From: an uncultured Syntrophomonadaceae bacterium
Lineage (GTDB): Bacteria; Bacillota; Dethiobacteria; DTU022
DNA length: 64,000 bases
Assembly: GCA_964485855.1 (NCBI GenBank)
Contig: CAZAKI010000006.1
Location: forward strand, 3,995-67,994
Reading direction: 5' to 3'
A program made the translations under genes and the position numbers. Below are positions 9,501 to 56,105 of this stretch, one piece after another (position 1 is the stretch's first letter; the number at the start of each line of letters is the position of its first letter). The notes under the pieces were generated by a model. That model ran no database searches. It saw nothing but the letters and a program-made list of their open reading frames with translations, and was not told the origin of the DNA.

Positions 9501-9512
9501 GAAAGAGCATAA

Positions 9513-37535: not shown

Positions 37536-39320
37536 ATGCTTCGGGCAAAAGATTTGATGATCAAACCACAACATTGCCTAAACTGCCGGGTTTCTGCTTC
37601 TGAGGCGATCAAGATTTTCTTTAATCACGGGACGCAAGTGCTTGCTGTTTATGATGAGCATCATTTTATAGGTTTAATCACTGCAGAATCAATTAGTCTT
37701 TGTTTATACAGTGCTGGCAACCTGGAAATCAAAGCAGCTGCTGATTTAATTGTTAAGGATTGCCCTTCGGTATCGACCGAGAGCAGCTTGGAACAGATCA
37801 GATCCTCTTTACCTGGTCACAATTATTTGCTGGTCAGAAACAGGCAGGGAGGGCTGGAAGGGATTATTACCGGAACTGATCTCGCTCAACAGTTGGCAGC
37901 AAGCGCCACTGAATTAGAAAAAGAGCTGGACGCAGTAATCAATTTTTCATCTGATGAGATCCTGGTGGCCGATCAGCAGGGCAAGGTTTTAAGAGTCAAT
38001 CACATTTTTGAGGAAAATTTCGGCGTAAAACTGACTTCAGTCCTGGGTAAAACAGTTGACGAGCTGGAGAAAAAGAAAATATTCTTTCCTTCCGTTACCA
38101 GGTTGGTCCTTGACAAAAAAGAGGTACAGACGGTTATACAGTCGCGCCGTGATGGCCGTAAGCTTTTAGCCACCGGCACCCCTGTATTTAATGAAGATGG
38201 TTCTATCTTCAGGGTTGTAGTAAATACCAGGGATATTACCAGGCTAAACAACCTGAAAAACCAGTTAGAAGAATCAGAGCTGTTAAAAAACCGTTATCAG
38301 CAAGAGCTAATCGAGTTGCGACAGGGTTATCTTGGTGGTGTCAGACTAGTTGCCAAAAGCAAAGCGATGGTAGATTTAATTAGCATCGTCCGCAAAATTG
38401 CTGCCGTGGATTCTACTGTCTTGCTGACCGGAGAATCGGGAGTAGGTAAGGGTTTGATTGCTCGCTACATTCATTATAGTAGTCCCCGGTCGGTTAAGCC
38501 TTTCACGGTAGTAAATTGTGGTGCGATTCCTGAAAATTTGCTCGAAAGCGAACTATTTGGCTATGCGGGGGGAGCATTTACAGGGGCGCTCAGGGAAGGT
38601 AAGATTGGCAAGTTGGAGTTAGCTAATGATGGCACTCTTTTTCTAGACGAAATATCAGATCTACCGCTTAATCTACAAGTCAAATTGCTCCATGTGATCC
38701 AGGAAGGGATCATTACCAGGATTGGTGGAACCAAAGAAATTAAGTTGAATTTGCGGTTCATCGCTGCCACGAATCGGGATATTGCCAGGCTGGTTGAAGA
38801 AGGTAAATTCCGGGAAGATCTTTATTTTCGTTTAGATGTTATTCCCCTGATGGTTCCTCCACTTAGAGAGCGCCGGGAAGATATCAAGATCCTGGTTGCA
38901 CAGTTTCTCGATAAGCTTAATCGGCGATACCAAAAGCAAAAAACCTTCACTCCCGAAGCGATGAAATATCTTGAAGCCTACCTGTGGCCCGGAAACGTGC
39001 GTGAATTGGAAAATTTAATCGAAAGAATGATGATTGTGATGGATCAGGATCAAATCGGCCCGGAAAAACTGCCCCGACATCTTTTGGGAGAAGTTGGTTT
39101 ACATAAAACGAATAAGCAGGCTCCTATCTATTCTGCATCCGGTGAACTTCCGCCCCTCAAAGAGACGCTTCAGAAAATGGAAAAAGAAATACTAACCGAA
39201 GCACTGAAACGCTACAAAACTACTTACCAAATTGCCGAAGCTTTAGATATTAATCAATCGACTGTTGTTCGCAAATTAAGTAAATATAATCTAGTCGAAC
39301 GGCAAACCAGGTATAAATAA
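37536..39320 (+). CDS. Sigma-54-dependent activator (CBS pair-PAS-AAA+-HTH), GabR/RocR-like
   Basis: GESGVGK, ESELFGY, GAFTGA, FLDEI, WPGNVRELEN; N-terminal CBS repeats and PAS; C-terminal 'IAEALDINQSTVVRK'. Confidence 0.95.
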   Translation: MLRAKDLMIKPQHCLNCRVSASEAIKIFFNHGTQVLAVYDEHHFIGLITAESISLCLYSAGNLEIKAAADLIVKDCPSVSTESSLEQIRSSLPGHNYLLVRNRQGGLEGIITGTDLAQQLAASATELEKELDAVINFSSDEILVADQQGKVLRVNHIFEENFGVKLTSVLGKTVDELEKKKIFFPSVTRLVLDKKEVQTVIQSRRDGRKLLATGTPVFNEDGSIFRVVVNTRDITRLNNLKNQLEESELLKNRYQQELIELRQGYLGGVRLVAKSKAMVDLISIVRKIAAVDSTVLLTGESGVGKGLIARYIHYSSPRSVKPFTVVNCGAIPENLLESELFGYAGGAFTGALREGKIGKLELANDGTLFLDEISDLPLNLQVKLLHVIQEGIITRIGGTKEIKLNLRFIAATNRDIARLVEEGKFREDLYFRLDVIPLMVPPLRERREDIKILVAQFLDKLNRRYQKQKTFTPEAMKYLEAYLWPGNVRELENLIERMMIVMDQDQIGPEKLPRHLLGEVGLHKTNKQAPIYSASGELPPLKETLQKMEKEILTEALKRYKTTYQIAEALDINQSTVVRKLSKYNLVERQTRYK

Positions 39321-39330
39321 AAACGTTATT

Positions 39331-39367
39331 TAATGCCGGAATGCATTATTAATGCAATAGCGCATTA
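39331..39367. promoter_or_regulatory. Tandem palindromic upstream activating sequences
   Basis: TAATGC-N6-GCATTA twice (39331-48 and 39350-67), about 115 bp upstream of the sigma-54 promoter. Confidence 0.75.
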
Positions 39368-39481: not shown

Positions 39482-39497
39482 TGGCATTACTTTTGCT
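39482..39497 (+). promoter_or_regulatory. Sigma-54 (-24/-12) promoter of gabT-aor-stn
   Basis: TGGCATTACTTTTGCT; GG-N10-GC spacing. Confidence 0.88.
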
Positions 39498-39549: not shown

Positions 39550-40896
39550 ATGAGCGGTAACAATGGCAAGAGTCCTGCGTTTGGGCCTGGTCCCAAATCT
39601 CAAGATTTACTGAAAATGCGCGATGAACATGTTGCCAGGGGGATATCCTATGTTTTACCCGTTTTTATTGAAGAAGCAAATGGAGCTTTGCTCAAAGATG
39701 TTGATGGTAATGAGTATCTCGATTTCACAACCGGGATTGGGGTTCTTAACATTGGACACAATCATCCGGCTGTAATTGAGGCGATTAAAAAGCAGGCTGA
39801 TCAGTATTTACACACTTGTTTCATGGTAACCATGTATGAACCCTATGTCAGGCTAGCTGCCGGTCTAAATAAACTGGCTCCGGGTAATTTTCCCAAAAAA
39901 ACGGCATTATTTAACAGCGGTGCCGAGGCGGTTGAAAATGCTGTTAAGCTGGCCCGGCGATACACTAAAAAAACAGCCCTTGTTTCCCTTGAGTGCGCTT
40001 TTCATGGTCGAACCTTAATGACGATGACCTTAACCTCCAAAGTCAGGCCTTATAAATACGGATTCGGTCCTTTTGCTCCCGATGTCTATAAGATCCCTTC
40101 TCCCTATTGCTATCGCTGCCGTTTTGGCTTAAATTATCCGGATTGTAATCTAAAATGCGCTCGCTACCTGGAACAATTTTTTGCGGTAGAATGCACTGCT
40201 GATCATGTTGCAGCGGTGATTGCCGAACCGATCCAGGGTGAAGGCGGCTTTATTGTCCCCCCTGCTGATTACTTTAAAGTTCTGCATGAAATTTGTCGCA
40301 ATAATGATGTTCTGTTAATCATTGATGAAATTCAGGCTGGTTTTTACAGGACGGGAGAACCCTTGGCCAGCTTCCATTTCGGGGTTGATCCTGATCTAAT
40401 TACAATGGCAAAATCGCTGGGTGGCGGAGTGCCGATTAGCGCGGTCACCGGCAGAGCCGAAATTATGGATGCAGCAGGTCCAGGTGAAATTGGTGGTACC
40501 TATGGGGGCAACCCACTTGCCTGTTCCGCTGCTCTTGCTGTACTCGAAGCGACAGAAAAAGAAAATATTGCCGAGCGGGCTAAAGAAACCGGTCGTCTTG
40601 CCGCCGCCAGGCTGGACCAGATGGCTGAAAAATACAAGCTCATCGGGGAACATCGCGGTCTGGGGGCGATGAGAGCGCTTGAACTGGTTAAAGATCGCCA
40701 GACAAAAGAACCTGCTCCGGAAGCGGCCAAAAAGATTATCAAGCGTTGCCATGAAAACGGTTTAGTGATTATCACTTCAGGGATATTCAGCAATGTGATT
40801 CGCCTGCTGATGCCGGTTAACATTCCGGTAGAACAGCTTAATAAAGGGATGGATATTCTTGAAAGGGCACTGGCTGCCGAAGAGGGAGGTAACTAA
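39550..40896 (+). CDS. gabT: 4-aminobutyrate/5-aminovalerate aminotransferase (class III PLP)
   Basis: DVDGNEYLDF, NSGAEAVENA, AFHGRT, EPIQGEGG, DEIQAG, MAKSLGGG. Confidence 0.92.
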   Translation: MSGNNGKSPAFGPGPKSQDLLKMRDEHVARGISYVLPVFIEEANGALLKDVDGNEYLDFTTGIGVLNIGHNHPAVIEAIKKQADQYLHTCFMVTMYEPYVRLAAGLNKLAPGNFPKKTALFNSGAEAVENAVKLARRYTKKTALVSLECAFHGRTLMTMTLTSKVRPYKYGFGPFAPDVYKIPSPYCYRCRFGLNYPDCNLKCARYLEQFFAVECTADHVAAVIAEPIQGEGGFIVPPADYFKVLHEICRNNDVLLIIDEIQAGFYRTGEPLASFHFGVDPDLITMAKSLGGGVPISAVTGRAEIMDAAGPGEIGGTYGGNPLACSAALAVLEATEKENIAERAKETGRLAAARLDQMAEKYKLIGEHRGLGAMRALELVKDRQTKEPAPEAAKKIIKRCHENGLVIITSGIFSNVIRLLMPVNIPVEQLNKGMDILERALAAEEGGN

Positions 40897-40899
40897 TAT

Positions 40900-42663
40900 T
40901 TGTATTCAACATTCGGAAAGCTCCTGCTAATTGATTTAACTAAAGCTGACATTGTTGAGAAAGAGCTGGAGGAAGATATATTTCAAAAGTACCTTGGCGG
41001 TAAAGGTCTTGGCAGTTACCTGCTGATGAAAATGTTGCCCCCGGGTACTGATCCACTGGCGCCGGAGAATGTCTTGATTTTTACAACAGGTCCGGCAGCT
41101 GATACCACTCTGGCTCCTGCTTCCCGTTTTGGGGTTTTTAGTAAGTCACCGGCTACCGGTTTCTATTCGGAATCGTACAGCGGCGGACACCTGCCTCCTG
41201 TCATGAAAAGAACCGGCTATGATGCCATTGTTATTACCGGTGCAGCTGAACATCCCTGTTATATCTCTATATCTGAAGAGGGCGTTAATTTTTATGATGC
41301 CAATGGAATCTGGGGTCAAGAATCATATCCCGCAGAAGAAGAGATCATCAAGGCCGTAGGGATTAAAGGTGCACAGGCCCTGGTAATTGGGCCGGCCGGG
41401 GAAAAGAAATTGCCTTTTGCCTGCATCAAGAATAATCGCTGGCGCAGCGCCGGAAGGACCGGCCTGGGTGCAGTTATGGGTTCGAAGCATCTTAAGGGAA
41501 TAGTATTCAGCGGCAGTGCTAAAGTAGCGCCTTTTGACGAAGAAGCGTTAAATACCTGGAGCCGTAATTTTTTCCAGCGCTATAAAGATTCACCCGAAGC
41601 AAGACTTTATCAAGAGAAGGGCACCCCTGCCCTGGTTGCCGTAACAAATAGCAGCGGTTGTTTTCCAACCCGTTACTGGTCTGCCGGTAAGCTTGAAGGT
41701 TGGGAGAAGATCAGCGCAGATTATATGCAGGAAAAAATGGCTGTAAAATCGAGGGGCTGCTACCGGTGTTTCTTTGCCTGTGGTAAACTGACTACGGTTA
41801 AGGAAGGCAGGCACCTGGGGCTTAAGGTTGAAGGTCCTGAGTTTGAAACCATTTATGCTTTTGGCGGACTCTGCTGTTTGCCGCAAATGGAAGAGATCCT
41901 TTACTTAAATGATCTCTGTGACCGTTGGGGTATCGATACAATAAGTGCCGGTAATATATCTGCTTTTGCGATCGAAGCTGGCTTGCGCGGCAAACTTGAC
42001 AATCCGCCCAGATACGGAGACGCTGACTCTATAGCAGGTTTTTTGGAACAGGTAGTTGAAGGTAAGGGTGACGGTAAACTTTTTGCCGGTGGCCTTAAAG
42101 AGGCAGCCAGACTCCTTGAGATGGAAGATTTTGCAATTCACGTCAAGGGGCTTGAACCTGCCGGTTATGACCCCAGGGTTTTAAAAGGGATGGGACTTGC
42201 TTATGCCACATCGGATCGGGGTGCCTGTCACCTAAGAGCTACCTTTTATAAACCGGAATTGAGCGGGATGATTGATCCGGGGCAGATAAAAGGTAAAGCC
42301 AGGATGTTTATTGATTATGAAGATCGCTTAAATATCTATGACTGTTTAATATTTTGCCGATTTTATCGCGATCTTATCCATTGGGAGCAGTTGATAGAAA
42401 TTCTTTACCTGCTTACCGGCAATCGATACAGCTTAGCTGATTTACACAGCTTTGCATCAAGAATTCAAACCCTGACCAGGCTATTTAACTATCGCGAAGG
42501 AGCTACGAGGGCTGATGATCTTTTACCGCGTAGACTGGTGACGGAAGCCATTAATGATGGTGAAAATCTAATCAGCCAGGAAGAACTGGAGCATATGTTG
42601 CAAGATTATTACCTGCTGCATGGTTGGGATCAAAATGGTGTTCCGCCATTGAAGCAGTTCTGA
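40900..42663 (+). CDS. aor: Aldehyde:ferredoxin oxidoreductase (W/Mo-pterin AOR family)
   Basis: YLGGKG, KSPATG, IGPAGE, GRTGLGAVMGSK, C..C..AC, EGPEFET, DRGACHL. Confidence 0.93.
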   Translation: MYSTFGKLLLIDLTKADIVEKELEEDIFQKYLGGKGLGSYLLMKMLPPGTDPLAPENVLIFTTGPAADTTLAPASRFGVFSKSPATGFYSESYSGGHLPPVMKRTGYDAIVITGAAEHPCYISISEEGVNFYDANGIWGQESYPAEEEIIKAVGIKGAQALVIGPAGEKKLPFACIKNNRWRSAGRTGLGAVMGSKHLKGIVFSGSAKVAPFDEEALNTWSRNFFQRYKDSPEARLYQEKGTPALVAVTNSSGCFPTRYWSAGKLEGWEKISADYMQEKMAVKSRGCYRCFFACGKLTTVKEGRHLGLKVEGPEFETIYAFGGLCCLPQMEEILYLNDLCDRWGIDTISAGNISAFAIEAGLRGKLDNPPRYGDADSIAGFLEQVVEGKGDGKLFAGGLKEAARLLEMEDFAIHVKGLEPAGYDPRVLKGMGLAYATSDRGACHLRATFYKPELSGMIDPGQIKGKARMFIDYEDRLNIYDCLIFCRFYRDLIHWEQLIEILYLLTGNRYSLADLHSFASRIQTLTRLFNYREGATRADDLLPRRLVTEAINDGENLISQEELEHMLQDYYLLHGWDQNGVPPLKQF

Positions 42664-42714: not shown

Positions 42715-43263
42715 ATGAAACAGGCTACAGCTACTGATTTAAAAGTGTTAGCGCAGGAACACCCGGTTTTTGCCGTCAAAGAAATTGTTGAAAAGCATAT
42801 TAAAAGCAAAGGGGCGGCAATACCGATTCTGCAGGAGATTCAAAATGTTTTCGGCTATATTTCACCGGAACTGCTGCAGAGAGCCGGAGAATTTTCTGGT
42901 ATTCCGGTAAACGAACTTTACAGTATCGTTACATTTTATGCCCAGTTCAGGTTGGAACCGATTGGAGAGCATCTGATCCAAGTTTGCCATGGGACAGCCT
43001 GCCACTTAGCCGGTGCGGAACGAATCACTGAGTCAATTCAGTTCGAAACGAAAGCCGGTCCGGGGAAAACCAGCGATGACGGTCTGTTTACAATGGAAAA
43101 GGTAGCCTGCCTCGGCTGCTGCAGTCTGGCACCGGTACTGACCATTGACGAGGAAACTTATGGACAGCTTTCTCCCGAGAAAGTTCGTAAAATTATCAAG
43201 GATGTGCGACGGAAAAACCCTGAGCAATCTGCTTCAAAGGGGGATAATGAAAGTGCAGGATAA
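42715..43263 (+). CDS. NuoE/HydC-like 2Fe-2S subunit (StnA-like)
   Basis: IPILQEIQ, TFYAQF, VCHGTACH, ACLGCCSLAP. Confidence 0.9.
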   Translation: MKQATATDLKVLAQEHPVFAVKEIVEKHIKSKGAAIPILQEIQNVFGYISPELLQRAGEFSGIPVNELYSIVTFYAQFRLEPIGEHLIQVCHGTACHLAGAERITESIQFETKAGPGKTSDDGLFTMEKVACLGCCSLAPVLTIDEETYGQLSPEKVRKIIKDVRRKNPEQSASKGDNESAG

Positions 43264-45049
43264 ACAGTATAGGGTCAAAGTTGGCCTTGCAACCTGCGGG
43301 ATTGCCGGCGGAGCAGCTAAAGTTTATCAAATTTTAAAAGATCGCCTGCAAGACAGCGGGATTGAAGTGGAACGAACCGGTTGTATCGGGATGTGCTACA
43401 ATGAACCGCTGGTCGAGGTAATTGAAGCTGACGGCCAAAGTTATCTTTATGGAAATTTAGAGCCGGAAGACAGCTTGCGTATTGTCGATGAGCATATCGA
43501 AAAAGGCAAACCGGTAAGAGATTTGCTTGTGCTTGGTCGAAGTGCTGAAACCGATGATCAGACTTTTTTAGAGAAACAACATCGAATTTTGCTTAAAAAT
43601 TGCGGCCATATCGATCCAGAAGAAATTCAAAGTTACATCGATGCCGATGGTTACAAAGGTTTAAGAAGAGCCCTGGAGCAAATGACTCCGGAAGCAGTAA
43701 TCGAAGAAATAAAGCAATCCGGGTTAAGAGGCAGAGGTGGTGCAGGTTTCCCAACGCATCTGAAATGGAGCCTGACCCGTCAAGCCGAGGGGACCCAGAA
43801 GTACATTGTTTGCAATGCAGACGAGGGTGACCCTGGTGCTTTTATGGATCGCAGTGTTCTTGAAGGTGATACACACAGCGTGTTGGAGGGAATGCTAATT
43901 GCCGGGTACGCCATCGGTGCCTCGGTCGGCTATGTATATATCAGGGCCGAATATCCGCTGGCCATTCGCCGCTTAAAGATTGCCATCGGGCAGGCTGAAG
44001 AAAGAGGCTTACTTGGTAAAAATATTCTTGGTTCCAACTATAATTTTGAAATATTTATCCGGGAAGGAGCCGGAGCTTTTGTTTGTGGCGAGGAAACAGC
44101 TCTTTTAATGTCGATTGAGGGGAAAAGAGGGATGCCTCGCTTTCGGCCGCCGTTTCCGGCTCAAAAAGGTCTTTTTGGTTGTCCCACATCGATCAATAAT
44201 GTTGAAACATTTGCCAATGTGCCCCGCATACTGCATCTGGGGGCTTCGGCCTACAATCAGCTTGGGACCGAGGAGAGCAAGGGGACCAAGGTTTTTGCCC
44301 TGGCGGGAAAAATCAGGCGGGGTGGTTTAATCGAGATTCCAATGGGCACAACCATCAATGAAATAGTATTCGATATTGGAGGAGGAATTTCAACCGGAAA
44401 ACCGTTTAAGGCAATCCAAACCGGTGGTCCTTCCGGTGGCTGTATCCCAGCGGAGTTGGGCGATACTCCCGTTGATTACGAATCGCTTAAAAAGATTGGG
44501 GCGATCATGGGTTCCGGTGGTCTGCTGGTGATGGATGAAGAAACCTGTATGGTTGATGTTGCCAGGTATTTTCTCTCATTCACCAGGGAAGAATCTTGTG
44601 GCAAGTGTACCTTTTGCCGGGCCGGTACAAACCAGATGTTAAAGATTTTAGAGCGCATCTCAGAGGGTAAGGGACGGGAAGAAGATGTCGATTTGTTGAT
44701 CGAATTGGCTGAAAAGATTAAAGCCGGCTCTCTTTGTGGTCTTGGACAGACAGCGCCAAACCCGGTTCTGACCACTATTAAATATTTTCGAAATGAATAT
44801 GATGCCCATGTTAAGGAAAAGTACTGCCCAGCCAAAAAATGTAAGGCTCTGATTACCTATGAAATTAATCCGGAAGCCTGCACCGGTTGTACTCTATGCG
44901 CCAGAAATTGTCCGGTTGATGCTATTTCTGGCATCAAAAAGGAAGCACACGTTATTGATCAGACAATCTGTATACGTTGCGGTCTTTGCATCAACAGTTG
45001 TAAATTTGATGCTGTAAATGTAAATTCGAAACCGAAGCAGCCTGTATAA
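43247..45049 (+). CDS. NuoF/HydB-like FMN/NADH-binding subunit (StnB-like)
   Basis: N-terminal thioredoxin-like 2Fe-2S; GRGGAGFP; NADEGDPGAFMDR; ESCGKCTFCR; C-terminal 2x[4Fe-4S]. Start ATG 43247. Confidence 0.92.
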   Translation: MKVQDKQYRVKVGLATCGIAGGAAKVYQILKDRLQDSGIEVERTGCIGMCYNEPLVEVIEADGQSYLYGNLEPEDSLRIVDEHIEKGKPVRDLLVLGRSAETDDQTFLEKQHRILLKNCGHIDPEEIQSYIDADGYKGLRRALEQMTPEAVIEEIKQSGLRGRGGAGFPTHLKWSLTRQAEGTQKYIVCNADEGDPGAFMDRSVLEGDTHSVLEGMLIAGYAIGASVGYVYIRAEYPLAIRRLKIAIGQAEERGLLGKNILGSNYNFEIFIREGAGAFVCGEETALLMSIEGKRGMPRFRPPFPAQKGLFGCPTSINNVETFANVPRILHLGASAYNQLGTEESKGTKVFALAGKIRRGGLIEIPMGTTINEIVFDIGGGISTGKPFKAIQTGGPSGGCIPAELGDTPVDYESLKKIGAIMGSGGLLVMDEETCMVDVARYFLSFTREESCGKCTFCRAGTNQMLKILERISEGKGREEDVDLLIELAEKIKAGSLCGLGQTAPNPVLTTIKYFRNEYDAHVKEKYCPAKKCKALITYEINPEACTGCTLCARNCPVDAISGIKKEAHVIDQTICIRCGLCINSCKFDAVNVNSKPKQPV

Positions 45050-45096
45050 GCGCCAGTGGGTCCTTGCTTCTTGATTATTAATATGGAGGATTAAAT

Positions 45097-48000
45097 ATGC
45101 CCAAGGTAGAGATCACCATTAACGGGAAAAAAATAATGGCTGAAAAAGGCAGTAACCTGCTTGAAACAGCCTTGCAGAATGGAATTGATATTCCCCACCT
45201 TTGTTATGATCCGCGGATTAAACCGTTTGGATCTTGCCGCCTCTGTTTTGTTGACACTGGTGGACCAAGAGGACCGGTTGCTGCTTGCGGAACCGTGGTG
45301 GAAGAAGGTATGAATGTAGTAACTGATAACGAATCATTGTATGAACTGCGTAAAACTGCTCTGGAACTTTTACTTTCAGAACATTGCGGTGATTGTATTG
45401 CTCCCTGTCAAGAAGCCTGTCCTGCCCATATCGATATCCAGGGTTACATTGCCCTGCTCGACAGGAAAGAATATAAGAAGGCAGCCGATTTAATCAAAGA
45501 AAAGATGCCTTTACCTTCAATCTGCGGTCGTGTTTGTCCGCGATTTTGCGAAGATCAATGCAGGAGAAACATGATTGATGATCCGGTTAACATCTGCGAC
45601 CTGAAAAGATTTGCCGGAGATTATGACTTGGAAATGATTGATTCCTACAAAACAGATGCTGCTGCTGATAGTGGTAAAAAAGTAGCAGTGGTTGGTGGTG
45701 GGCCGGCGGGTTTGACTGCTGCGTACTACCTGGCTTTGAAAGGCCACCAGGTGACCTTATATGATCGTGGTCCAAAGCTTGGCGGAATGTTGCGCTATGG
45801 TATCCCTGAATACCGCCTGCCGAAAGCGCTGCTTGACCGGGAGATTAACCTGATAGCCGGACTCTGCCGGGAGGTCCGCTTGGGAGAAGTATTTGGAAAA
45901 GATTTTACCATTGATGATCTAACTGATCAATACGATGCCGTCTTCCTTGGTTTAGGCTGTCAGTCAGCCCAGGGGATGGGTCTCGAAGGAGAAGATCGGC
46001 CTGGTATCCTCAAAGGGATTGATTTTTTACGCTGTGTGGCCGAAGGTAATCCTCCGGTCCTGGGCAAAAAAGTGGCGGTTGTCGGTGGCGGCAATACGGC
46101 AATGGATGCCGCCAGAACAGCGCTTCGTTTAGGGGCAGAAGAAGTTCATTTAATCTACAGGCGCAGCCGCAATGAAATGCCGGCAGCCCTCATAGAAATC
46201 GAAGAAGCAGAAGAAGAAGGTATTAAATTTGATTACCTGACCAACCCGGTCTCGGTTTTGGGCACCGACTGTGTTATGGGTGTAGAATGTGTGCAGATGG
46301 AGTTGGGTGAACCCGATGAAAGTGGTCGTTGTCGTCCCTTGGCAGTTGAAGGATCAGAGTTCAAACTTGAAGTCGATAATGTGATCATGGCGATCGGACA
46401 AACACTGGATCAGGAAAGTACCTGTTCATGCAATCTCGAGCTAAAAGGAAAAACGATGGCCGCCTGCTCTGATACCGGTCAAACTTCTGTTGAAAAAGTA
46501 TTTGCCGCCGGGGATGCTGTAACCGGTCCGGCTACAGTTGTTGAAGCCGTTGGGGCAGCAAGGAAAACTGCACTGGCCATGGACCGATACCTTCAGGGTC
46601 AAATGGTTGAATCTGAACCGCACATCTACAATTGCTCGATGGGCCGGCTTGACCAGCTTGATCCCGATGATTTTTCTGAATATCCGAAAGAAGAGCGTTT
46701 GCCGGTGCACCATCTAGCCCCGGAAGAGCGCAAGAAAAGTTTTGCAGAATATAACCAGGGGTTGAGTGAAGAAGATGTTGTCAAAGAAACAAAGCGCTGC
46801 CTTTCCTGCGGTTGTCAGGATGTTTTTGAGTGTTCCTTACGCCGATTGGCTACTGATCTCAACCTCGATAACGAACGGTTGGGGACAGAAAAGAAAAGAT
46901 ATCCCATCAGGAAAGATCACCCCTTTATTGTGCATGATCCCAACAAATGCGTGCTTTGTGCGAACTGTGTCCGTATTTGCCATGAAGTTCAGGGGGCTAA
47001 TGCACTCTGCTTGGTTAATCGCGGTTATGATACGCTAGTCAGTCCAACTTTACAGCTGCCTCTAAATGAGACTACCTGTGAATCTTGTGGACAGTGTGTA
47101 TCGGCTTGTCCTACCGGGGCTCTTACCGCAAAAGGCTATTTCTCCAAACCCGGTCCCTGGTTTCCCGATCGAGTGGTTGAAAGTACCTGCACACGTTGTG
47201 GGATCGGCTGCCGCATCGAGTTGAATGTAGTGGCGAACAGGGTAACAGCGATAAATTCTCCTTTGCGTCAGGATCTAAATGATGGCAATTTGTGTCTTAG
47301 AGGTCGATATGAGTCGCTTTTTGCTCAAGACACCGATCGGATCCTGAAACCATTTGTCAATTTTGACGGACAAAAAAAACAAGAAATAAAATGGCCGGAA
47401 GCATTAGAAAGGGCCGCTTCCGGATTGTTACAGGTTAAAAAAGAATCTGGTCCGGAAAATATTGCTGTTGTTATCTCATCATCCCTGTGTAACGAAGAGA
47501 TGATCCTGGCCCAGAAATTAGCTACAGAGCTTATTGGGACAGATCAGTTTTACGCAACGGGGTTACCTTTGTCAGCAGCAAATAAAAGCATTAAATCTTT
47601 GTCTTACAAAAATATTGCTGAAAGCGATTTTATCCTGGTAATTGATGCCGACCTGCCTGAAGATTATCCGATTGTGGCTCAAAAAATACGTAAGGCCCTG
47701 AGTCAAGATGCAAAACTTGCTTTTATTGGGACGGAAGTAAATCGTTTGTTTAAAGATGCAGATGTTTCTGTGCTTTACAGCCCGGGGAAACTTAAGGCAA
47801 TATTAAAAGTGTTGCTGTACTATGAAAGTGGCAAAGAAAAAGTCCTTTCACTCAGTGATGCTGAGATTACTGCAGCTTTAGCCTCTTTGCCCCAGGATCT
47901 TTCTGATAATCCGGCTGTTTTGGTGCAGATAGCCTCTTTATTCTTAAATTCAAACAAGCCGGTAATCGTTGTTGATGGAGATAAAACCGGCAGCGAAACA

Positions 48001-48525
48001 TATGACCTTTTAGCAGAACTTTACAGACAGGCCGGAAATGATCTTAACCCCGGCATTCTTGCTCTGCACAGGGGTGGAAATACTGCAGGTCTGATTGAAC
48101 TGGGTTTTGCCACAGGACTGGTGGATGAAAATGTTTTAGCTCCTGGTTGCATTAATGATCAGGTAATGGTGGCAGACCTGTTTAAGCAGATGAAAGGTTT
48201 ACTGCTGATTGGCGATGAGCCGGCAGCACTGATTGATCTCGCAGCACCAGATAGTTTCATTGTGACGTTAGCTGCTTATCATCAATCCAAACTGCTCGCT
48301 TCCGATCTGGTTTTACCATTGGCCGGCTATTTTGAAACAACCGGAACGGTAGTTAACGCTGAAAGAAGGCTTTGTGAACTAAGGCCAGCCTATGCGCCGC
48401 TTGCGGGGAAAAGCAATTCAACGTTGCTGATTGACTTCGCGACAGCTCTAGGCGGCACCTTGGAACCAGTAACAAAAGCTCAGGTTGTCGAAAGAATGAG
48501 TCGGCATTTATTTTTTGAAGCCTAA
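45097..48525 (+). CDS. NuoG-like/GltD(NfnB)-like fusion with cofactor-less molybdopterin-oxidoreductase fold (StnC-like)
   Basis: N-terminal 2Fe-2S; CQEACPAH...CGRVCPRFCE; GGGPAG and GGGNTAMD FAD/NADP motifs; two further 4Fe-4S motifs; C-terminal Mo-bisPGD-like region lacking the FDH ligand motif. Confidence 0.8.
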   Translation: MPKVEITINGKKIMAEKGSNLLETALQNGIDIPHLCYDPRIKPFGSCRLCFVDTGGPRGPVAACGTVVEEGMNVVTDNESLYELRKTALELLLSEHCGDCIAPCQEACPAHIDIQGYIALLDRKEYKKAADLIKEKMPLPSICGRVCPRFCEDQCRRNMIDDPVNICDLKRFAGDYDLEMIDSYKTDAAADSGKKVAVVGGGPAGLTAAYYLALKGHQVTLYDRGPKLGGMLRYGIPEYRLPKALLDREINLIAGLCREVRLGEVFGKDFTIDDLTDQYDAVFLGLGCQSAQGMGLEGEDRPGILKGIDFLRCVAEGNPPVLGKKVAVVGGGNTAMDAARTALRLGAEEVHLIYRRSRNEMPAALIEIEEAEEEGIKFDYLTNPVSVLGTDCVMGVECVQMELGEPDESGRCRPLAVEGSEFKLEVDNVIMAIGQTLDQESTCSCNLELKGKTMAACSDTGQTSVEKVFAAGDAVTGPATVVEAVGAARKTALAMDRYLQGQMVESEPHIYNCSMGRLDQLDPDDFSEYPKEERLPVHHLAPEERKKSFAEYNQGLSEEDVVKETKRCLSCGCQDVFECSLRRLATDLNLDNERLGTEKKRYPIRKDHPFIVHDPNKCVLCANCVRICHEVQGANALCLVNRGYDTLVSPTLQLPLNETTCESCGQCVSACPTGALTAKGYFSKPGPWFPDRVVESTCTRCGIGCRIELNVVANRVTAINSPLRQDLNDGNLCLRGRYESLFAQDTDRILKPFVNFDGQKKQEIKWPEALERAASGLLQVKKESGPENIAVVISSSLCNEEMILAQKLATELIGTDQFYATGLPLSAANKSIKSLSYKNIAESDFILVIDADLPEDYPIVAQKIRKALSQDAKLAFIGTEVNRLFKDADVSVLYSPGKLKAILKVLLYYESGKEKVLSLSDAEITAALASLPQDLSDNPAVLVQIASLFLNSNKPVIVVDGDKTGSETYDLLAELYRQAGNDLNPGILALHRGGNTAGLIELGFATGLVDENVLAPGCINDQVMVADLFKQMKGLLLIGDEPAALIDLAAPDSFIVTLAAYHQSKLLASDLVLPLAGYFETTGTVVNAERRLCELRPAYAPLAGKSNSTLLIDFATALGGTLEPVTKAQVVERMSRHLFFEA

Positions 48526-48685: not shown

Positions 48686-50026
48686 ATGTCCACGAAAATC
48701 AAAGAGTTTATGAATACTGTGATTGCTAAAAATCCTGGTGAAGTTGAATTTCACCAGGCAGTTGAGGAAGTTGTTGAAACGATTTATCCCTATATTGAAG
48801 ATAACCCTAAATACCTGAAGGCAAAAATATTGGAACGTTTGGTAGAACCGGAAAGGATTGTCATGTTTAGGGTTCCCTGGCTCGACGATAAAGGAGATGT
48901 GCAAATTAACCGTGGTTACCGCATTGAGTGGAATAGCGCCATTGGTCCCTATAAAGGTGGTATTCGTTTTCATCCCAGCGTTAATTTGAGCATTCTCAAA
49001 TTTTTAGCTTTTGAACAGGTTTTCAAAAACGCCTTGACAACCTTGCCGATGGGTGGCGGTAAAGGCGGATCTGATTTTGATCCCAAGGGCAAATCAGACA
49101 ATGAGATTATGAAATTCTGTCAGAGTTTCATGACAGAACTGAGCAGGCACATTGGTCCGAACACTGATGTCCCGGCTGGCGATATCGGGGTAGGCGGGCG
49201 TGAAATTGGTTACATGTTTGGTCAGTACAAAAGGTTGCGCAATGAGTTTACCGGTGTTTTAACCGGTAAAGGCCTTAATTGGGGTGGCAGCCTGATCCGG
49301 CCTGAAGCAACAGGATATGGATGCGTATATTTTGTAGAAGAGATGTTGAAGACCAAGGGTGACTCTTTACGCGGTAAAATTTGTGCTGTTTCGGGTGCCG
49401 GTAACGTGGCCCAGTATACTATTGAAAAACTACTTGAAATGGGCGCTAAAGTTGTTACCTGCTCCGATTCAAATGGCTATATCCGGGCGGAGCAAGGTCT
49501 GGAAAGAAAAGATCTGGAAAGCGTTTTGAAACTTAAAAATATCAAGCGTGGGCGAGTGAAAGAACTGGTTGATGAATTTGCCTGCGAATACTACGAGGAT
49601 CAAAAACCATGGTCGGTTAAATGCGACATCGCTTTCCCCTGTGCCACACAGAATGAAATTGATGAAAAAGATGCCAAGATGCTTGTTGAAAATGGCTGTA
49701 TTGCCGTTGGCGAAGGAGCGAACATGCCTACGACGCCGGCCGGTGTTGAAGTATTTCAGACAGCGAAAATTCTGTATGCTCCGGGTAAAGCCTCCAATGC
49801 AGGTGGGGTTTCGACTTCCGGCCTGGAGATGACCCAGAATAATATGCGCTTGGCCTGGTCTAGAGAAGAAGTTGATCAGAAGCTACGTTCTATTATGGTA
49901 AGTATACATAACCAGTGTGTTAAATATGGGACACAGGATGACGGCTACGTCGATTATGTCAAGGGAGCTAATATCGCCGGTTTTGTGAAAGTAGCCGATG
50001 CGATGATTGACCAGGGAATTGTTTAA
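48686..50026 (+). CDS. gdhA: NADP-specific glutamate dehydrogenase
   Basis: GPYKGGIRF, GGGKGG, DVPAGDIG, RPEATGYG, GAGNVA, NAGGV. Confidence 0.97.
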   Translation: MSTKIKEFMNTVIAKNPGEVEFHQAVEEVVETIYPYIEDNPKYLKAKILERLVEPERIVMFRVPWLDDKGDVQINRGYRIEWNSAIGPYKGGIRFHPSVNLSILKFLAFEQVFKNALTTLPMGGGKGGSDFDPKGKSDNEIMKFCQSFMTELSRHIGPNTDVPAGDIGVGGREIGYMFGQYKRLRNEFTGVLTGKGLNWGGSLIRPEATGYGCVYFVEEMLKTKGDSLRGKICAVSGAGNVAQYTIEKLLEMGAKVVTCSDSNGYIRAEQGLERKDLESVLKLKNIKRGRVKELVDEFACEYYEDQKPWSVKCDIAFPCATQNEIDEKDAKMLVENGCIAVGEGANMPTTPAGVEVFQTAKILYAPGKASNAGGVSTSGLEMTQNNMRLAWSREEVDQKLRSIMVSIHNQCVKYGTQDDGYVDYVKGANIAGFVKVADAMIDQGIV

Positions 50027-50230: not shown

Positions 50231-53197
50231 ATGGATTTAGAACGCTTGAATTATTACTACACAAAATTTAAATTTGGCGAAGATAATTTCCACGATCTGA
50301 TGCAATTCAGAGTTCGGGAAATTTTGCTGATCTCCACCCTCTATGATGCCTATACCTTTGAACAGGAGTCAAGGTTAAGTCAACAGTTAGTCGGCGAATA
50401 TCATGAATTAAAATTGACGACTATACCGCGGATCACCAATGTACCCACTGCTGAAGAAGCTCTGGATAAATTAAAAGAGCAGCGTTATGATTTGATCATT
50501 ACTACCATGCGCATTGCCGGTTTGACTGCTTTCGAACTGGGTCGGAAGATCAAAGAACAATACAGTGACATCCCGATTTTGCTTTTACTGACTAATAAAG
50601 CCGATCTAAGTATTGTATCGGGCAAACAGGGTGAAATGGCTTATTTTGATAATGTTTTTCTCTGGAATGGCGATTCCAAGCTGATCCTGGCGATGATCAA
50701 ATACATCGAGGATAAGCAGAATGTCGAATACGATACCCGCAATGGTCTGGTCAGAGTGATCCTGCTGGTGGAAGACTCGGTTGATTTTTATTCCCTTTAT
50801 CTGCCGGCACTTTACAAAGAGATTATGTTACAGACCCAAAGGCTAATTTCCGAGGAATTAAATGATGCCCAAAAGTATTACCGGATGCGAGCCAGACCGA
50901 AAGTCCTCTATGCCAGAAATTATGAAGAAGCGATTGCTCTTTACGAGCAATATAAAGAATTTATTCTTTGCCTGATCTCTGATATTAGCTTTGAAAAAGA
51001 TGGTGAAATAAATCGGGAGGCCGGAATAGAGCTAATCAAGACAGTCCAGAAGGATAAATGGGAAATACCGGTTCTCTTACAGTCTTCTGAACCGGCTAAC
51101 AAAAAAGTAGCTGAATCTTTGCAAGCTAGTTTTATCTGCAAATACTCCCCGAATCTTTTATACGAAGTGAAAAATTTTATCTGTACGAATTTAGGTTTTG
51201 GCGATTTTATTTTTCGTAATGCAGACGGAGAAGAAATTGATCGCGCAACCTCTTTGGCAGACCTGGAAAAGAAGATTATGTTAGTTCCAAAGGAAACCTT
51301 GCTTTATCATAGCAAGAAGAATCATTTTTCGGCCTGGCTGATTGCCCATGGTGAAATCCAGGTGGCGAGAAAAATACGTCCGGTTAAGAACACTGATTTT
51401 GCCGATACTGATCAGCATCGGCAATTTTTGGTTAATGTCTTTAACCAGACCAGGAACCAGCGGCGAAAAGGCAAGGTAATCGCATTTGAGAAAAATTCAC
51501 TGGCCACGGAAAATCAGATTATTAAGTTAACCGAAGGTTCGCTTGGGGGTAAAGGTCGGGGAATCGCTTTTTTTAACAGTTTATTTTCAATTATAAATAC
51601 AGAACGGGAAGACGATGAAACTGCGATAAAAATCCCGAGGACTTTTATTATTGGCACGGATGAGTACGATTCTTTTATCGAAGTTAACAAACTACGCAAA
51701 TTAATGACCTGTGAAAACGATCAATTGATCAAGGAGCAGTTCATTAAAGGAAAACTCACCTCTGAACTAACCGCAAAGCTTACCGAACTGCTGCAGGTTA
51801 TTACCAAACCCCTGGCAGTGAGATCCTCCGGCCTGCTGGAAGATTCGCAGTCCCAGCCTTTTGCCGGGATTTATGAAACCTACATGCTGCCCAATAATGC
51901 GGAGCAATTATCAGCTCGTCTTGAACAGCTAACGCGTGCGATTAAGTTGGTCTATGCATCAGTATATTTACAGAACGCTAAAAGCTACATCGAAAGCCTT
52001 CGGTATCGGTTGGAAGAAGAAAAAATGGCGGTTGTGATGCAGGAAGTAGTAGGGAAGGAAACGGCGGGGTTTTATTATCCTCACTTTTCAGGTGTGGCCC
52101 AATCGTATAACTTTTATCCCACTTCTTATCTTAAGCATCACGATGGCGTAGCGATGCTTGTTGCCGGCCTCGGCCATTCAATAGTTGAAGGCGGTAGAAC
52201 CCACCGGTTTTGCCCCCGTTATCCCGAGATGAACTTTTTTTCGCTTGAAGATCAGATCCGTTACACCCAAACAGAAATATTTGCCCTGGATATGCAAAAA
52301 GGCAACACCGAGAACGATAAAGTTGAACTTACTACCCTGGCTATGCTGCCAATTGAAACTGTTGAAGAACACAAGAATTTGAAACATCTGGCCTCTGCCT
52401 GGGATGCAGCAAACAATCGGATCGAAAGCGGACTTGCTACCGAAGGACCGCGGGTAGTTAATTTTGCCAACATTTTACAGTACGAAACTTTCCCCCTGGC
52501 AAAGCTTTTGGTTGATATTCTTGGTATCTCTGAAGTTGCCTTTGGAGTACCGGTTGAAATCGAATTTGCAGTTGATCTGACAAGTAATCAAGCTAGTGGC
52601 GAAATGCCTGCGTTTTACTTTTTGCAGGTTCGTCCACTTACGGTTAATACTGGTGAACTTAATATCGATCTTGATACACTTGGGGCTGAAGCCCTAATCC
52701 TATATACAAATGAAGGGATGGGACACGGTGTAGTTGATAACCTTTATGACCTGGTAGTGGTTAATCCTGAGCACTTTAATAAAACCGAGACCATTAAGAT
52801 TCAGCAGGAGATAGAATATTTTAATCAAAAACTAAAAAATGAAAACAGACGTTATATTTTGATTGGTCCCGGGCGTTGGGGTTCCCGCGATCGTAGCTTG
52901 GGTGTTCCGGTTAGCTGGGGGCAAATTTCGCAGGCCCAGGTTATTGTGGAAGCCGGTATTAAGGATTTTGATATTGAACCATCCCAGGGCACCCATTTTT
53001 TCCATAACCTTGTTGCTATGAATATCGGTTATTTTAACATTAATTATCATTCAAAAACCGATTTCATCGACTGGGACTGGATCAAGATTCAGAATCGGGA
53101 TGAAGAAAAGAGCTATACTTTTCACCTCAAAAGTGAACGGCCCTTTGTCGTTAAAATGGATGGTAAAAAAGGAACTTCAGTGATCATGAAGCCCTGA
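50231..53197 (+). CDS. Receiver-like domains fused to a PEP synthase/PPDK N-terminal ATP-grasp domain (function unknown)
   Basis: N-terminal 'ILLISTLYDAY..E' and 'ILLVEDS..FYS' receiver-like folds; GSLGGKGRG, LAVRSSGLLEDS..QPFAG.Y.T; no phospho-His swivel or pyruvate barrel. Confidence 0.85.
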   Translation: MDLERLNYYYTKFKFGEDNFHDLMQFRVREILLISTLYDAYTFEQESRLSQQLVGEYHELKLTTIPRITNVPTAEEALDKLKEQRYDLIITTMRIAGLTAFELGRKIKEQYSDIPILLLLTNKADLSIVSGKQGEMAYFDNVFLWNGDSKLILAMIKYIEDKQNVEYDTRNGLVRVILLVEDSVDFYSLYLPALYKEIMLQTQRLISEELNDAQKYYRMRARPKVLYARNYEEAIALYEQYKEFILCLISDISFEKDGEINREAGIELIKTVQKDKWEIPVLLQSSEPANKKVAESLQASFICKYSPNLLYEVKNFICTNLGFGDFIFRNADGEEIDRATSLADLEKKIMLVPKETLLYHSKKNHFSAWLIAHGEIQVARKIRPVKNTDFADTDQHRQFLVNVFNQTRNQRRKGKVIAFEKNSLATENQIIKLTEGSLGGKGRGIAFFNSLFSIINTEREDDETAIKIPRTFIIGTDEYDSFIEVNKLRKLMTCENDQLIKEQFIKGKLTSELTAKLTELLQVITKPLAVRSSGLLEDSQSQPFAGIYETYMLPNNAEQLSARLEQLTRAIKLVYASVYLQNAKSYIESLRYRLEEEKMAVVMQEVVGKETAGFYYPHFSGVAQSYNFYPTSYLKHHDGVAMLVAGLGHSIVEGGRTHRFCPRYPEMNFFSLEDQIRYTQTEIFALDMQKGNTENDKVELTTLAMLPIETVEEHKNLKHLASAWDAANNRIESGLATEGPRVVNFANILQYETFPLAKLLVDILGISEVAFGVPVEIEFAVDLTSNQASGEMPAFYFLQVRPLTVNTGELNIDLDTLGAEALILYTNEGMGHGVVDNLYDLVVVNPEHFNKTETIKIQQEIEYFNQKLKNENRRYILIGPGRWGSRDRSLGVPVSWGQISQAQVIVEAGIKDFDIEPSQGTHFFHNLVAMNIGYFNINYHSKTDFIDWDWIKIQNRDEEKSYTFHLKSERPFVVKMDGKKGTSVIMKP

Positions 53198-53346: not shown

Positions 53347-53607
53347 TTGACCCGAACCAAAGCAAAAGAATCCGACGCACTCTTAAACATTAATCACCAG
53401 TGGTGTAAAGGGTGCGGCATCTGTATGGCTTTCTGTCCGCGGGAAGCTCTTTTTTTGAATGACAGAGGAAAAGCGGAAGTAATCAGCGACAAGTGCACGG
53501 CCTGCGGTGTGTGTGAGCTGTTCTGCCCGGATTTTGCACTTTCTTTGATTAAGAGGAGGAGTTCAGCAAATGCCGGAAACGAAACCGCTTTTAATGCAGG
53601 GCAATGA
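53347..53607 (+). CDS. korD: 2-oxoacid:ferredoxin oxidoreductase delta subunit (2x[4Fe-4S])
   Basis: WCKGCGICMAFCP and CTACGVCELFCPDFA. Confidence 0.88.
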   Translation: MTRTKAKESDALLNINHQWCKGCGICMAFCPREALFLNDRGKAEVISDKCTACGVCELFCPDFALSLIKRRSSANAGNETAFNAGQ

Positions 53608-54700
53608 AGCCTGTGCCGTAGGAGCAATAGATGCCGGAGTTCGTTTTTATGCCGGTTATCCGATCACTCCTTCTACTGAAATAGCCGAAATAATGGCTGC
53701 ACGGTTGCCGGAAATTGGCGGTGTTTTTATTCAGATGGAAGATGAGATTGCCAGTATGGCAGCCGTCATTGGGGCCTCGATTGGTGGGATGCGAACCTTG
53801 ACGGCAACCAGCGGACCCGGATTTTCCCTGAAACAGGAAAACCTTGGTTATGCAATCATGGCCGAGATTCCTACCGTGGTTGTCGATGTACAGCGGATGG
53901 GCCCCAGCACCGGTGTGCCGACCGCACCATCCCAGGGTGATGTGATGCAGTCACGTTGGGGCACTCACGGAGATCATCCGATTATCGTTTTTTCACCGGC
54001 TTCAGTTTACGAAACATACTATCTAACTATTGCTGCGGTTAACCTGAGCCAAAAACTGCGGCAGCCGGTTATTATGCTTCTTGACGAGGTTATCGGTCAT
54101 ATGCGGGAGAAAGTTATGATTCCCGAAAGTGGCAAACTTTTAGTTGAAAAATCAAGCAATGAAGTGCCTGCCGATTGGAAACCTTATGATGAGAAGGGGC
54201 TGACGCCCCTGGTTCCCTTTGGTTTTGGTCATTATTATCATGTAACCGGTTTGTATCATGATCAGTATGGTTTCCCAACCGGTGATCCGCTCCAGGTTGA
54301 GCGGGCTCTTGACCGGTTGCATGATAAACTCGATAAATATCGCGATGAGATTATCCTCACCAATTACATTGGTCATAAGGAGCCACGGGTCGCTTTAGTT
54401 ACTTACGGCTGTACTGTTCGTTCTGCTCGGGCGGTAGTGAAAAAAGCATACTGGCAGAATCGCCTGCCGGTCGGCTTGCTTAGCTTACAAACCATTTGGC
54501 CTTTTCCGGCCCGTGAAATTGAAGCCCTGGCCAAGCAGGTTGATGTCATTATTGTTCCGGAGCTTAACAGGGGACAGTTAGTTGGTGAAGTTGAAAGATA
54601 TGCTGCCGGTCAGGCTAAGGTAGTACCGTTTAATCGCTATGATGGTGAAATGATCTTACCGGATCAAATATCTGATTTAATTGGGAGGTGGCTGTCATAG
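53570..54700 (+). CDS. korA: 2-oxoacid:ferredoxin oxidoreductase alpha subunit (2-oxoglutarate type likely)
   Basis: GNEA, AGYPITPSTE, QMEDEIAS, TATSGPG, QRMGPSTG. Confidence 0.9.
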   Translation: MPETKPLLMQGNEACAVGAIDAGVRFYAGYPITPSTEIAEIMAARLPEIGGVFIQMEDEIASMAAVIGASIGGMRTLTATSGPGFSLKQENLGYAIMAEIPTVVVDVQRMGPSTGVPTAPSQGDVMQSRWGTHGDHPIIVFSPASVYETYYLTIAAVNLSQKLRQPVIMLLDEVIGHMREKVMIPESGKLLVEKSSNEVPADWKPYDEKGLTPLVPFGFGHYYHVTGLYHDQYGFPTGDPLQVERALDRLHDKLDKYRDEIILTNYIGHKEPRVALVTYGCTVRSARAVVKKAYWQNRLPVGLLSLQTIWPFPAREIEALAKQVDVIIVPELNRGQLVGEVERYAAGQAKVVPFNRYDGEMILPDQISDLIGRWLS

Positions 54701-55503: not shown

Positions 55504-55526
55504 ATTTGATTACGGGGGGATTATTG

Positions 55527-56105
55527 TTGAGTAAAAGACAGGAGATATTGCTGACTGGAGCCGGTGGGCAGGGATTGATCTTGGCATCTATCGTCCTGGC
55601 TGAAGCAGCTGTTAATGATAATAAAAATGTTGTTCAAACCCAGTCTTACGGGCCTGAGGCGCGCGGTGGGGCCAGTATGGCTGGAGTGATTATTGATGTT
55701 GACACAATCGAATATCCCAAGGTAACCAGCCCAACGGTTTTGCTCTGTATGAATCAGGCTTCATATAACAAGTATTTACCGAAAGTAGAACCTGGCTGTG
55801 TTATTATAACCGATTCAACTTTTGTCAGCGGCCCATACAAGGAAGAATATAAAGTTCGGTCTTTCCCCATAACCAAGATGGCCAAAGAAATACTAAAACG
55901 CGAAGTAGTTGCTAATATGCTGGCACTAGGGGTGATCAATGCTGCTACCGGGCTGGTTGATCGAGAAATCTTCAGGGAAAGCATATTCAAGATGGCTCCC
56001 AAGGGAAGTGGTGAGCTTAATCAGCAGGCGTATGATCTTGGTTACAGCATTTTTGAGGCGGGCCCTGGACAGGTTAACGGCGTATCTGCTCAAAACCCTC
56101 AATAA
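55527..56105 (+). CDS. korC: 2-oxoacid:ferredoxin oxidoreductase gamma subunit
   Basis: GAGGQG, QSYGPEARGG, NMLALG; likely TTG start after GGGGGA. Confidence 0.88.
   Translation: MSKRQEILLTGAGGQGLILASIVLAEAAVNDNKNVVQTQSYGPEARGGASMAGVIIDVDTIEYPKVTSPTVLLCMNQASYNKYLPKVEPGCVIITDSTFVSGPYKEEYKVRSFPITKMAKEILKREVVANMLALGVINAATGLVDREIFRESIFKMAPKGSGELNQQAYDLGYSIFEAGPGQVNGVSAQNPQ

Follow-up and report, generated by a model that had tools for sequence, protein, structure and literature searches.

A stretch of 64,000 nt from the 2.38-Mb genome of an uncultured member of the Bacillota (98.4% complete; contig C6, positions 3995-67994, in the following the window) revealed a gene for a 4-aminobutyrate (GABA) aminotransferase, gabT, followed directly by aor, a gene for an aldehyde:ferredoxin oxidoreductase (AOR) of the tungsten-dependent family. 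Based on the identity, catalytic residues, order and conservation of these genes, on the lack of a gene for the NAD(P)-dependent semialdehyde dehydrogenase GabD and on the presence of rpoN and of Rnf genes in the genome, we consider it probable that they belong to an operon under sigma-54 control which serves to deaminate an omega-amino acid oxidatively and in which the AOR takes the place of GabD. The likeliest substrate is GABA, followed by 5-aminovalerate. The datasets containing this stretch were DNA metagenomes labelled as sediment, marine sediment, seawater or simply as metagenome, and no RNA dataset was among them.

Organization and control of the operon

On the forward strand, genes for a sigma-54 activator, GabT, the AOR, a NuoE-like protein, a NuoF-like protein, a GltD-NuoG fusion protein and a glutamate dehydrogenase (GDH) were found in this order (Table 1), and the region is bracketed by the conserved blocks tig-clpP-clpX-lon-engB and, at its opposite end, valS-folC. 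A previous annotation of the window from its letters alone (in the following the sequence-only reading) had placed aor 3 nt behind gabT, which is borne out by the ends of both intact reading frames (40896 and 40900): gabT terminates with TAA at 40894-40896, and aor starts with a TTG that is preceded by GGAGG about 10 nt upstream and leads into an N-terminus typical of the family. The span of 39550-42663 given there was correct for the gene pair and too short for the operon, which stretches past 42663 via stnB, stnC, stnA and gdhA to 50026. A pattern scan of the forward-strand intergenic gaps up to gdhA revealed no convincing intrinsic terminator, and no PF00171 aldehyde dehydrogenase (ALDH) gene was found in the operon.

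The sigma-54 control claimed by the same reading also held. In a profile search, the activator upstream of gabT showed an AAA+ sigma-54 interaction domain (PF00158, 221 bits) together with PAS, CBS and HTH_50 domains, and it matched the model for PrdR (NF041552) at 454 bits, under the cut-off of 795. The promoter element TGGCAT-N5-TTGC lies 55 nt ahead of the gabT start codon. This pattern occurred six times in the window with 4.25 matches expected, so that taken alone it is not rarer than chance; its degenerate form TGGCAY-N5-TTGC, however, was also located ahead of the leading gene of 13 related clusters, in most of them 63-180 nt upstream. Orthologues of the activator lie upstream of gabT in relatives, and rpoN is present in the genome, so that a positioned -24/-12 promoter, a suitable activator and the sigma factor gene were all identified. 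Two abutting palindromes, TAATGC-N6-GCATTA, lie between the activator gene and the promoter and are probably the binding site of the activator, i.e., its upstream activating sequence (UAS); repeats of the type ATGC-N6-GCAT were seen again ahead of gabT or gdh in four related loci (L014, L017, L019, and L059). A comparison with Rfam, including the molybdenum and tungsten cofactor (Moco/Wco) riboswitches, resulted in no match within positions 30000-60000.

Table 1. Features of the gabT-aor operon and its control region, in window coordinates
Feature	Position	Strand	Basis
Sigma-54 enhancer-binding activator, PrdR-like architecture	37536..39320	+	PF00158, PAS, CBS, HTH_50
Two abutting palindromes TAATGC-N6-GCATTA, putative UAS	39331..39367	.	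sequence reading
Sigma-54 -24/-12 promoter TGGCATTACTTTTGC	39482..39496	+	motif, conserved in relatives
gabT, class-III omega-aminotransferase, GABA:2-oxoglutarate type	39550..40896	+	TIGR00700
aor, WorL-only AOR/WOR family; proposed succinate-semialdehyde:ferredoxin oxidoreductase	40900..42663	+	PF02730, PF01314
stnB/nfnC-like NuoE-type [2Fe-2S] subunit	42715..43263	+	PF01257, 162 bits
stnC/nfnB-like NuoF-type FMN/NAD subunit	43247..45049	+	9bov_B, 8oh5_B matches
stnA/nfnA-like GltD-type FAD/NADPH module fused to NuoG/Fdh-like Fe-S module	45097..48525	+	9bov_A match
gdhA, NADP-type glutamate dehydrogenase	48686..50026	+	NF006929

GabT, the AOR and the aldehyde enzymes of the genome

The gabT product (448 aa; PF00202 at 415 bits) passed the equivalog model for GABA transaminases, TIGR00700, with 548 bits against a cut-off of 506.65, and the corresponding partners of an AOR in Desulfofundulus kuznetsovii and in Desulfocapsaceae scored 586 and 566 bits. 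Its nearest solved relatives were bacterial GabT and PuuE proteins (E 1e-128 to 1e-105). Though only 40% identical to Escherichia coli GabT, the protein has conserved the pyridoxal phosphate lysine and all checked substrate-binding residues: I63, R154, E231, D259, Q262, K288, T317, and R418 align with I50, R141, E211, D239, Q242, K268, T297, and R398 of the E. coli enzyme. R154 we take to be the residue that binds the omega-carboxylate, as in GabT and GABA aminotransferase structures. The PatA-like aminotransferases of the same genome have a lysine at E. coli position 141 and a tyrosine at position 50, so that the residue set of GabT, arginine at 141 and isoleucine at 50, fits a substrate with a distal carboxylate.

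The aor product (587 aa) revealed the AFOR_N and AFOR_C architecture of the large subunit (WorL) of the tungsten-containing oxidoreductases (WORs), with 234 bits to PF02730 (cut-off 29.8) and 368 bits to PF01314 (cut-off 27). Among solved structures, WorL of Acetomicrobium mobile (9mqx_D, 359 bits) and the AOR of Pyrococcus furiosus (PfAOR, 1aor, 348 bits) scored above the formaldehyde:ferredoxin oxidoreductase (FOR, 303 bits). C287, C290, C294, and C486 align with the [4Fe-4S] ligands C288, C291, C295, and C494 of PfAOR, and T242, E316, Y423, and H444 with its second-shell catalytic residues T243, E313, Y427, and H448 (PMC13328260), so that by its residues the enzyme is catalytically intact; it would be expected to contain a tungsten-bis-pyranopterin cofactor and to pass its electrons to ferredoxin. 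Since its gene neighbours are gabT and stnB and no gene for a 4x[4Fe-4S] protein is adjacent, it falls into class I of the WORs (WorL-only). In a tree, the window AOR and 28 relatives grouped in one clade with good support, and the remaining seven AOR paralogues of the genome fell outside it. In this clade, 31 positions are invariant and differ in the paralogues; R342, K451, R476, and R490, which are among them, we regard as no more than a lead to residues of the substrate channel.

The sequence-only reading had noted that the operon has no gabD-like gene, and the search of the whole genome extended this finding. Only a single PF00171 ALDH was detected, on contig C61; it is MdlD/class-3-like and reached 183 bits with the model for succinate semialdehyde dehydrogenase (SSADH/GabD, TIGR01780), far under the cut-off of 646. 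Thus, the NAD(P)-dependent GabD that completes a canonical GABA shunt operon (gabT and gabD) was found neither in the operon nor elsewhere in this 98.4%-complete genome, and no SSADH above the cut-off was found in four other genomes carrying the gabT-aor pair either, the best being a near miss of 546 bits in genome G404. With eight AOR-family genes, eight class-III aminotransferases and one ALDH, the aldehyde metabolism of the genome appears to depend to an unusual degree on tungsten-family enzymes.

As a side observation, two proteins (P0141 and P0146) were found to be AORs fused to an AMP-dependent ligase (PF00501), and the window's own genome encodes homologues of both parts, an AOR with 55% and a ligase with 50% identity, as adjacent separate genes (C24:17581-21121). 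Fusion and adjacency suggest a channel from aldehyde via acid to acyl-CoA.

Recurrence of the linkage and associated genes

The survey of gabT-aor synteny, suggested by the sequence-only reading as a check, did detect the linkage elsewhere: in part of the Bacillota, in cultured D. kuznetsovii DSM 6115 and in a few Desulfobacterota. In a sample of 400 Bacillota genomes, a close homologue of the AOR was detected in 19, not counting the genome of the window, and with extended flanks gabT was found in the cluster in ten of these 19, directly upstream of aor in seven and in the order gabT-(permease or gdh)-activator-aor in three. Relatives with AORs 84, 73, and 71% identical carry activator-gabT-aor-gdh at the same chromosomal site, D. 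kuznetsovii has the order activator-gdh-amino-acid permease-gabT-aor, and three Desulfobacterota metagenome-assembled genomes (MAGs; labelled Desulfocapsaceae or delta proteobacterium) harbor gabT-aor with 49% AOR identity. In all six clusters where it was read, the gap between both genes was 0-36 nt. The linkage is thus kept across families and phyla, usually joined by gdh and the sigma-54 activator.

In D. kuznetsovii (CP002770), a paralogue sharing 92% identity with the AOR linked to gabT was noticed at 3240411-3254168 (L061) in a carboxylate-rich context comprising TctA, a PrpD-family gene, a Na+/dicarboxylate symporter, an NadB-like flavoprotein and nadA-nadB-nadC. In a proteomic study of this organism, the AOR Desku_2951 adjoins an alcohol dehydrogenase and Desku_2946 was flat across conditions (PMC5770442); neither tag could be mapped to the gabT-linked gene, and neither was used as evidence.

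A gdh gene follows aor directly in L014, L016, and L017. Two types occupy this slot: an E. coli-like NADP-dependent GdhA in the window (NF006929 at 771 bits, above the cut-off of 536) and in L017, and a small archaeal/RocG-like enzyme in L014 (11793-13088), L016 (11853-13115), L019 (2386-3681), and D. kuznetsovii. That two unrelated types are found in the same position argues for a GDH, of whichever type, being required in the operon. In the window, three further genes lie between aor and gdhA, namely those for the NuoE-like, the NuoF-like and the GltD-NuoG fusion subunit (42715-48525) that make up a transhydrogenase of the Stn/NfnABC type. The true start of stnC is the ATG at 43247, overlapping the end of stnB, and its product matched 9bov_B and 8oh5_B with 850 and 837 bits. 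The fusion subunit (1142 aa) revealed 801 bits to 9bov_A, 751 bits to 8oh5_C (Stn of S. ovata), and 692 bits to NfnA (9n5u). Because this large subunit has its own FAD/NADPH module, the trio is self-contained; no gene for the polyferredoxin WorS, which a WorABCSL complex would include, was found in the operon. Since relatives carry activator-gabT-aor-gdh at the same site without the trio, we regard it as a local insertion in the lineage of the window.

Downstream of gdhA, a 988-aa protein (50231-53197) combines a receiver-like domain with only the nucleotide-binding part of phosphoenolpyruvate synthase/pyruvate phosphate dikinase. It sits between gdhA and korDABC, as in L017 and L018. The korDABC genes (53347-56105) encode a 2-oxoacid:ferredoxin oxidoreductase (alpha subunit NF006412, 505 bits, cut-off 411), followed by a GlnK/GlnL-like two-component pair. 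Linkage of korDABC to the gabT-aor operon was seen in the window's own family only.

A second type of association concerns PatA-like putrescine aminotransferases. In genome G200 (L058, 5562-12478, reverse strand), gabT-aor-patA-aor2 lie behind a TGGCAT-N5-TTGC element, an arrangement that resembles a complete route from putrescine to succinate comprising two AORs. The window's own genome holds two PatA-like aminotransferases, one of them beside another AOR: on contig C46 (L042, 8475-13449), an AOR gene (8475-10262, reverse strand) is divergent from an AsnC-type regulator (10364-10882), after which come the gene for the PatA-like protein (11120-12472; NF008570 at 587 bits, cut-off 612), one for a putrescine/ornithine carbamoyltransferase next to it and the contig end. 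In addition, 25 natural fusion proteins of about 1054-1060 aa (P0121-P0140, P0142-P0145, and P0147) consist of an N-terminal PatA-like part, 57% identical to the C46 protein, and a C-terminal AOR; those with a source name came from Thermodesulfobacteriota or Deltaproteobacteria MAGs. All fusions found in the search, for which the AOR served as query, were PatA-like and none was of the GabT::AOR type. These fusions show that a class-III aminotransferase and an AOR work one after the other. Together, the four-gene cluster, the C46 locus and the fusions suggest a route from putrescine via 4-aminobutanal, GABA and succinate semialdehyde to succinate, with AORs at both aldehyde steps.

Proposed pathway, competing explanations and known systems

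In the pathway that we propose, GabT would transfer the amino group of the omega-amino acid to 2-oxoglutarate, yielding succinate (or glutarate) semialdehyde and glutamate. The single-subunit AOR would then oxidise the semialdehyde to the dicarboxylate under reduction of ferredoxin, in place of the NAD(P)-dependent GabD, and GdhA would deaminate glutamate, giving back 2-oxoglutarate with formation of NADPH and release of ammonium. In the window genome only, the inserted Stn/NfnABC transhydrogenase may couple the NADPH formed by GDH with the pools of NAD and ferredoxin. Reduced ferredoxin would be oxidised by Rnf, whose genes were located 3 kb outside the window, and the low-potential electrons of the aldehyde step could in this way drive ion translocation. 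As a genome search revealed neither a hydrogenase of the [FeFe] or [NiFe] type nor an acetyl-CoA synthase, reduced ferredoxin is likely to be drained by Rnf. Two methylmalonyl-CoA-mutase-family genes are present in the genome and could process succinate further. A search for GrdB and PrdB resulted in no match, yet the control genomes gave none either. For the substrate, the direction, the metal and the energy yield of this pathway, we infer what is stated here from the sequence.

Thus, the ferredoxin-linked catabolism of an omega-amino acid put forward by the sequence-only reading gained support from the intact AOR, the GabT residues, the missing GabD, the conserved linkage and the presence of Rnf without a hydrogenase. 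Its broader formulation, an energy-conserving variant of GABA, 5-aminovalerate or diamine catabolism, fared differently in its parts: the GABA type is supported genomically, and the diamines are better assigned to the separate pairs of PatA-like proteins and AORs.

Several observations weigh against the proposed pathway. At the sequence level GABA, 5-aminovalerate and beta-alanine cannot be told apart as substrates, the window operon comprises no transporter, and the oxidative direction of GDH is thermodynamically uphill, its flux depending on removal of the products. Moreover, the AOR clade occurs in 65 of 301 sampled Desulfobacterota genomes, with gabT adjacent in only two of the 30 best loci, and linkage to gabT is scattered within the clade, requiring at least five changes on the tree. 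Since the clade is not gabT-specific, the enzyme may be a recruited broad-range AOR and not a dedicated semialdehyde enzyme. We read these findings as a general bacterial WorL-only clade that was repeatedly recruited or kept beside gabT, mainly in Bacillota, and not as a clade with one substrate.

A generalist AOR would also suit a peptide fermentation as in Pyrococcus, in which alpha-amino acids are transaminated, GDH recycles 2-oxoglutarate, korDABC makes the acyl-CoA and the AOR clears aldehydes that arise when 2-oxoacids are decarboxylated in a side reaction, a role suggested for PfAOR (PMC13328260). This would account for gdh and korDABC near aor in the window and in close relatives, for the spread of the clade without gabT and for the closer similarity to broad-range AORs (1aor and 9mqx_D) than to FOR. 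We nevertheless regard it as unlikely, because the aminotransferase lies above the GabT equivalog cut-off with the GabT residues kept, kor is unlinked in D. kuznetsovii, in the Desulfocapsaceae MAGs and in 14 of 15 extended Bacillota loci, gabT and aor are so closely spaced in the six clusters, and both the gabT-aor-patA-aor2 cluster and the fusions of PatA-like proteins with AORs speak for a chemistry of omega-amines. With its sigma-54 PAS activator, class-III aminotransferase, aldehyde oxidiser and catabolic gdh, the operon further mirrors the layout of RocR-rocD-rocA-rocG of Bacillus subtilis. In such a route, the side chain of ornithine or lysine would be transaminated, the AOR would replace the RocA-type semialdehyde/pyrroline-5-carboxylate dehydrogenase, and the resulting glutamate or 2-aminoadipate would go to GDH and Kor, both of which would then lie on the main carbon path. 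The ornithine aminotransferase model TIGR01885, however, gave 281 bits against a cut-off of 378 for the L010 orthologue and was not among the top 25 hits of the window protein, and the archaeal ornithine-type relative 7vno scored far below the bacterial GabTs. Position 63 is isoleucine as in GabT, where ornithine aminotransferases presumably have a tyrosine, judging from structures of that enzyme and of GABA aminotransferase. A Roc-like route is accordingly somewhat less likely still.

Two further explanations appear very improbable to us. That the AOR docks on the Stn-like trio to form a WorABCSL-like bifurcating enzyme, oxidising aldehydes with NAD(P) and ferredoxin, could be read from the BfuC/B/A-type genes starting 51 nt after aor and from WorL of A. 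mobile as the best solved relative. WorL is, however, wired to WorA by WorS, which is required (PMC12318220) and for which no gene is present; the large subunit has a GltD FAD/NADPH module of its own and reached 750-800 bits with Stn/NfnABC, and the trio is missing in all relatives that keep gabT-aor-gdh. Equally improbable is a reverse operation, with a ferredoxin-driven AOR reducing a dicarboxylate to the semialdehyde, GabT aminating it, GDH and Stn supplying glutamate and NADPH, and the omega-amino acid as product or electron sink. AORs do reduce acids in acetogens and P. furiosus (PMC12096430), GdhA of the NADP type is usually NADPH-consuming and Stn usually NADPH-forming, and a genome in which no hydrogenase was found would need an electron sink. 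Against this, the one studied sigma-54/PAS activator of gabT is a substrate-induced catabolic switch (PMC4279683). The D. kuznetsovii genes are linked to an amino-acid permease, and relatives use the small, catabolic-looking GDH type without Stn. We also know of no use for GABA or 5-aminovalerate in bulk.

Going beyond the proposed pathway, and much more tentatively, the operon and the PatA-like/AOR pairs might form a fully ferredoxin-linked, tungsten-dependent route from putrescine via GABA to succinate, in which both aldehyde oxidations reduce ferredoxin and Stn lifts part of the NADPH from GDH to ferredoxin. If so, an organism with neither hydrogenase nor substrate-level steps in this branch could conserve the energy of amine oxidation solely via Rnf, and a large bacterial WorL-only clade would obtain a defined physiological role.

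For the literature, our search found no paper linking an AOR to GabT. A WOR classification from 2026 lists a defined physiological role for only five of 92 clades and mentions neither aminotransferases nor semialdehydes (PMC13328260). With the conserved gabT-aor(-gdh) operon, a definite substrate and pathway can be put to the test for a bacterial AOR clade of wide occurrence, and its presence in cultured D. kuznetsovii makes it testable in a living organism. Should the proposal hold, strict anaerobes would keep the low-potential electrons that are set free when the aldehydes of GABA and polyamine degradation are oxidised and that are lost with an NAD(P)-dependent GabD, and tungsten would be needed for the utilisation of such nitrogen-rich compounds in sediments.

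Among known systems, the chemical precedent is FOR of P. furiosus (1B25/1B4N), a proposed oxidiser of glutaric semialdehyde with its lowest Km for glutaric dialdehyde and with glutarate in the crystal (PMC12096430). It is likewise of the tungsten AOR family and has second-shell residues and cluster cysteines in common with the window AOR; unlike the latter, it is archaeal, tetrameric and without a genetic pathway context, whereas the window enzyme is nearer to AOR sensu stricto (348-359 vs. 303 bits) and groups in a bacterial clade that does not include the seven other paralogues of its genome. With WorABCSL of A. mobile (9MQX; PMC12318220), the operon shares the best solved match, WorL, and adjacent Bfu-type NuoE/NuoF-like genes; it differs in lacking WorS and in its self-contained Stn/NfnABC trio, which is absent from relatives. 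The putrescine route of E. coli (PatA/YgjG, PatD/YdcW, GabT or PuuE, GabD or Sad) also consists of two rounds of transamination and aldehyde oxidation, but here AORs of the ferredoxin type appear to stand in for the aldehyde dehydrogenases at both steps. GABA fermentation by Clostridium aminobutyricum opens with GABA:2-oxoglutarate transamination and GDH, as proposed for the window operon; there the semialdehyde is reduced to 4-hydroxybutyrate, which is dehydrated via its CoA ester, while in the window it is apparently oxidised to the acid with ferredoxin.

Closest in regulatory and pathway layout are gabR-gabT-gabD of Bacillus thuringiensis and gabDTP of E. coli, with GabD replaced. Both pathways are opened by a GabT-type aminotransferase; they continue with an NAD(P)-dependent GabD, whereas an AOR follows gabT here and a gdh is included in the operon. 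In B. thuringiensis, gabT is activated by GabR, a sigma-54 activator of PAS-AAA-HTH layout for which GABA and succinic semialdehyde are the inducers and whose binding repeats lie ahead of the -24/-12 promoter of gabT (PMC4279683), the likeness to the window activator being one of domain layout. Altogether, the gabT-aor pairing would represent a GABA-type pathway that is already known, with the AOR as its new element.

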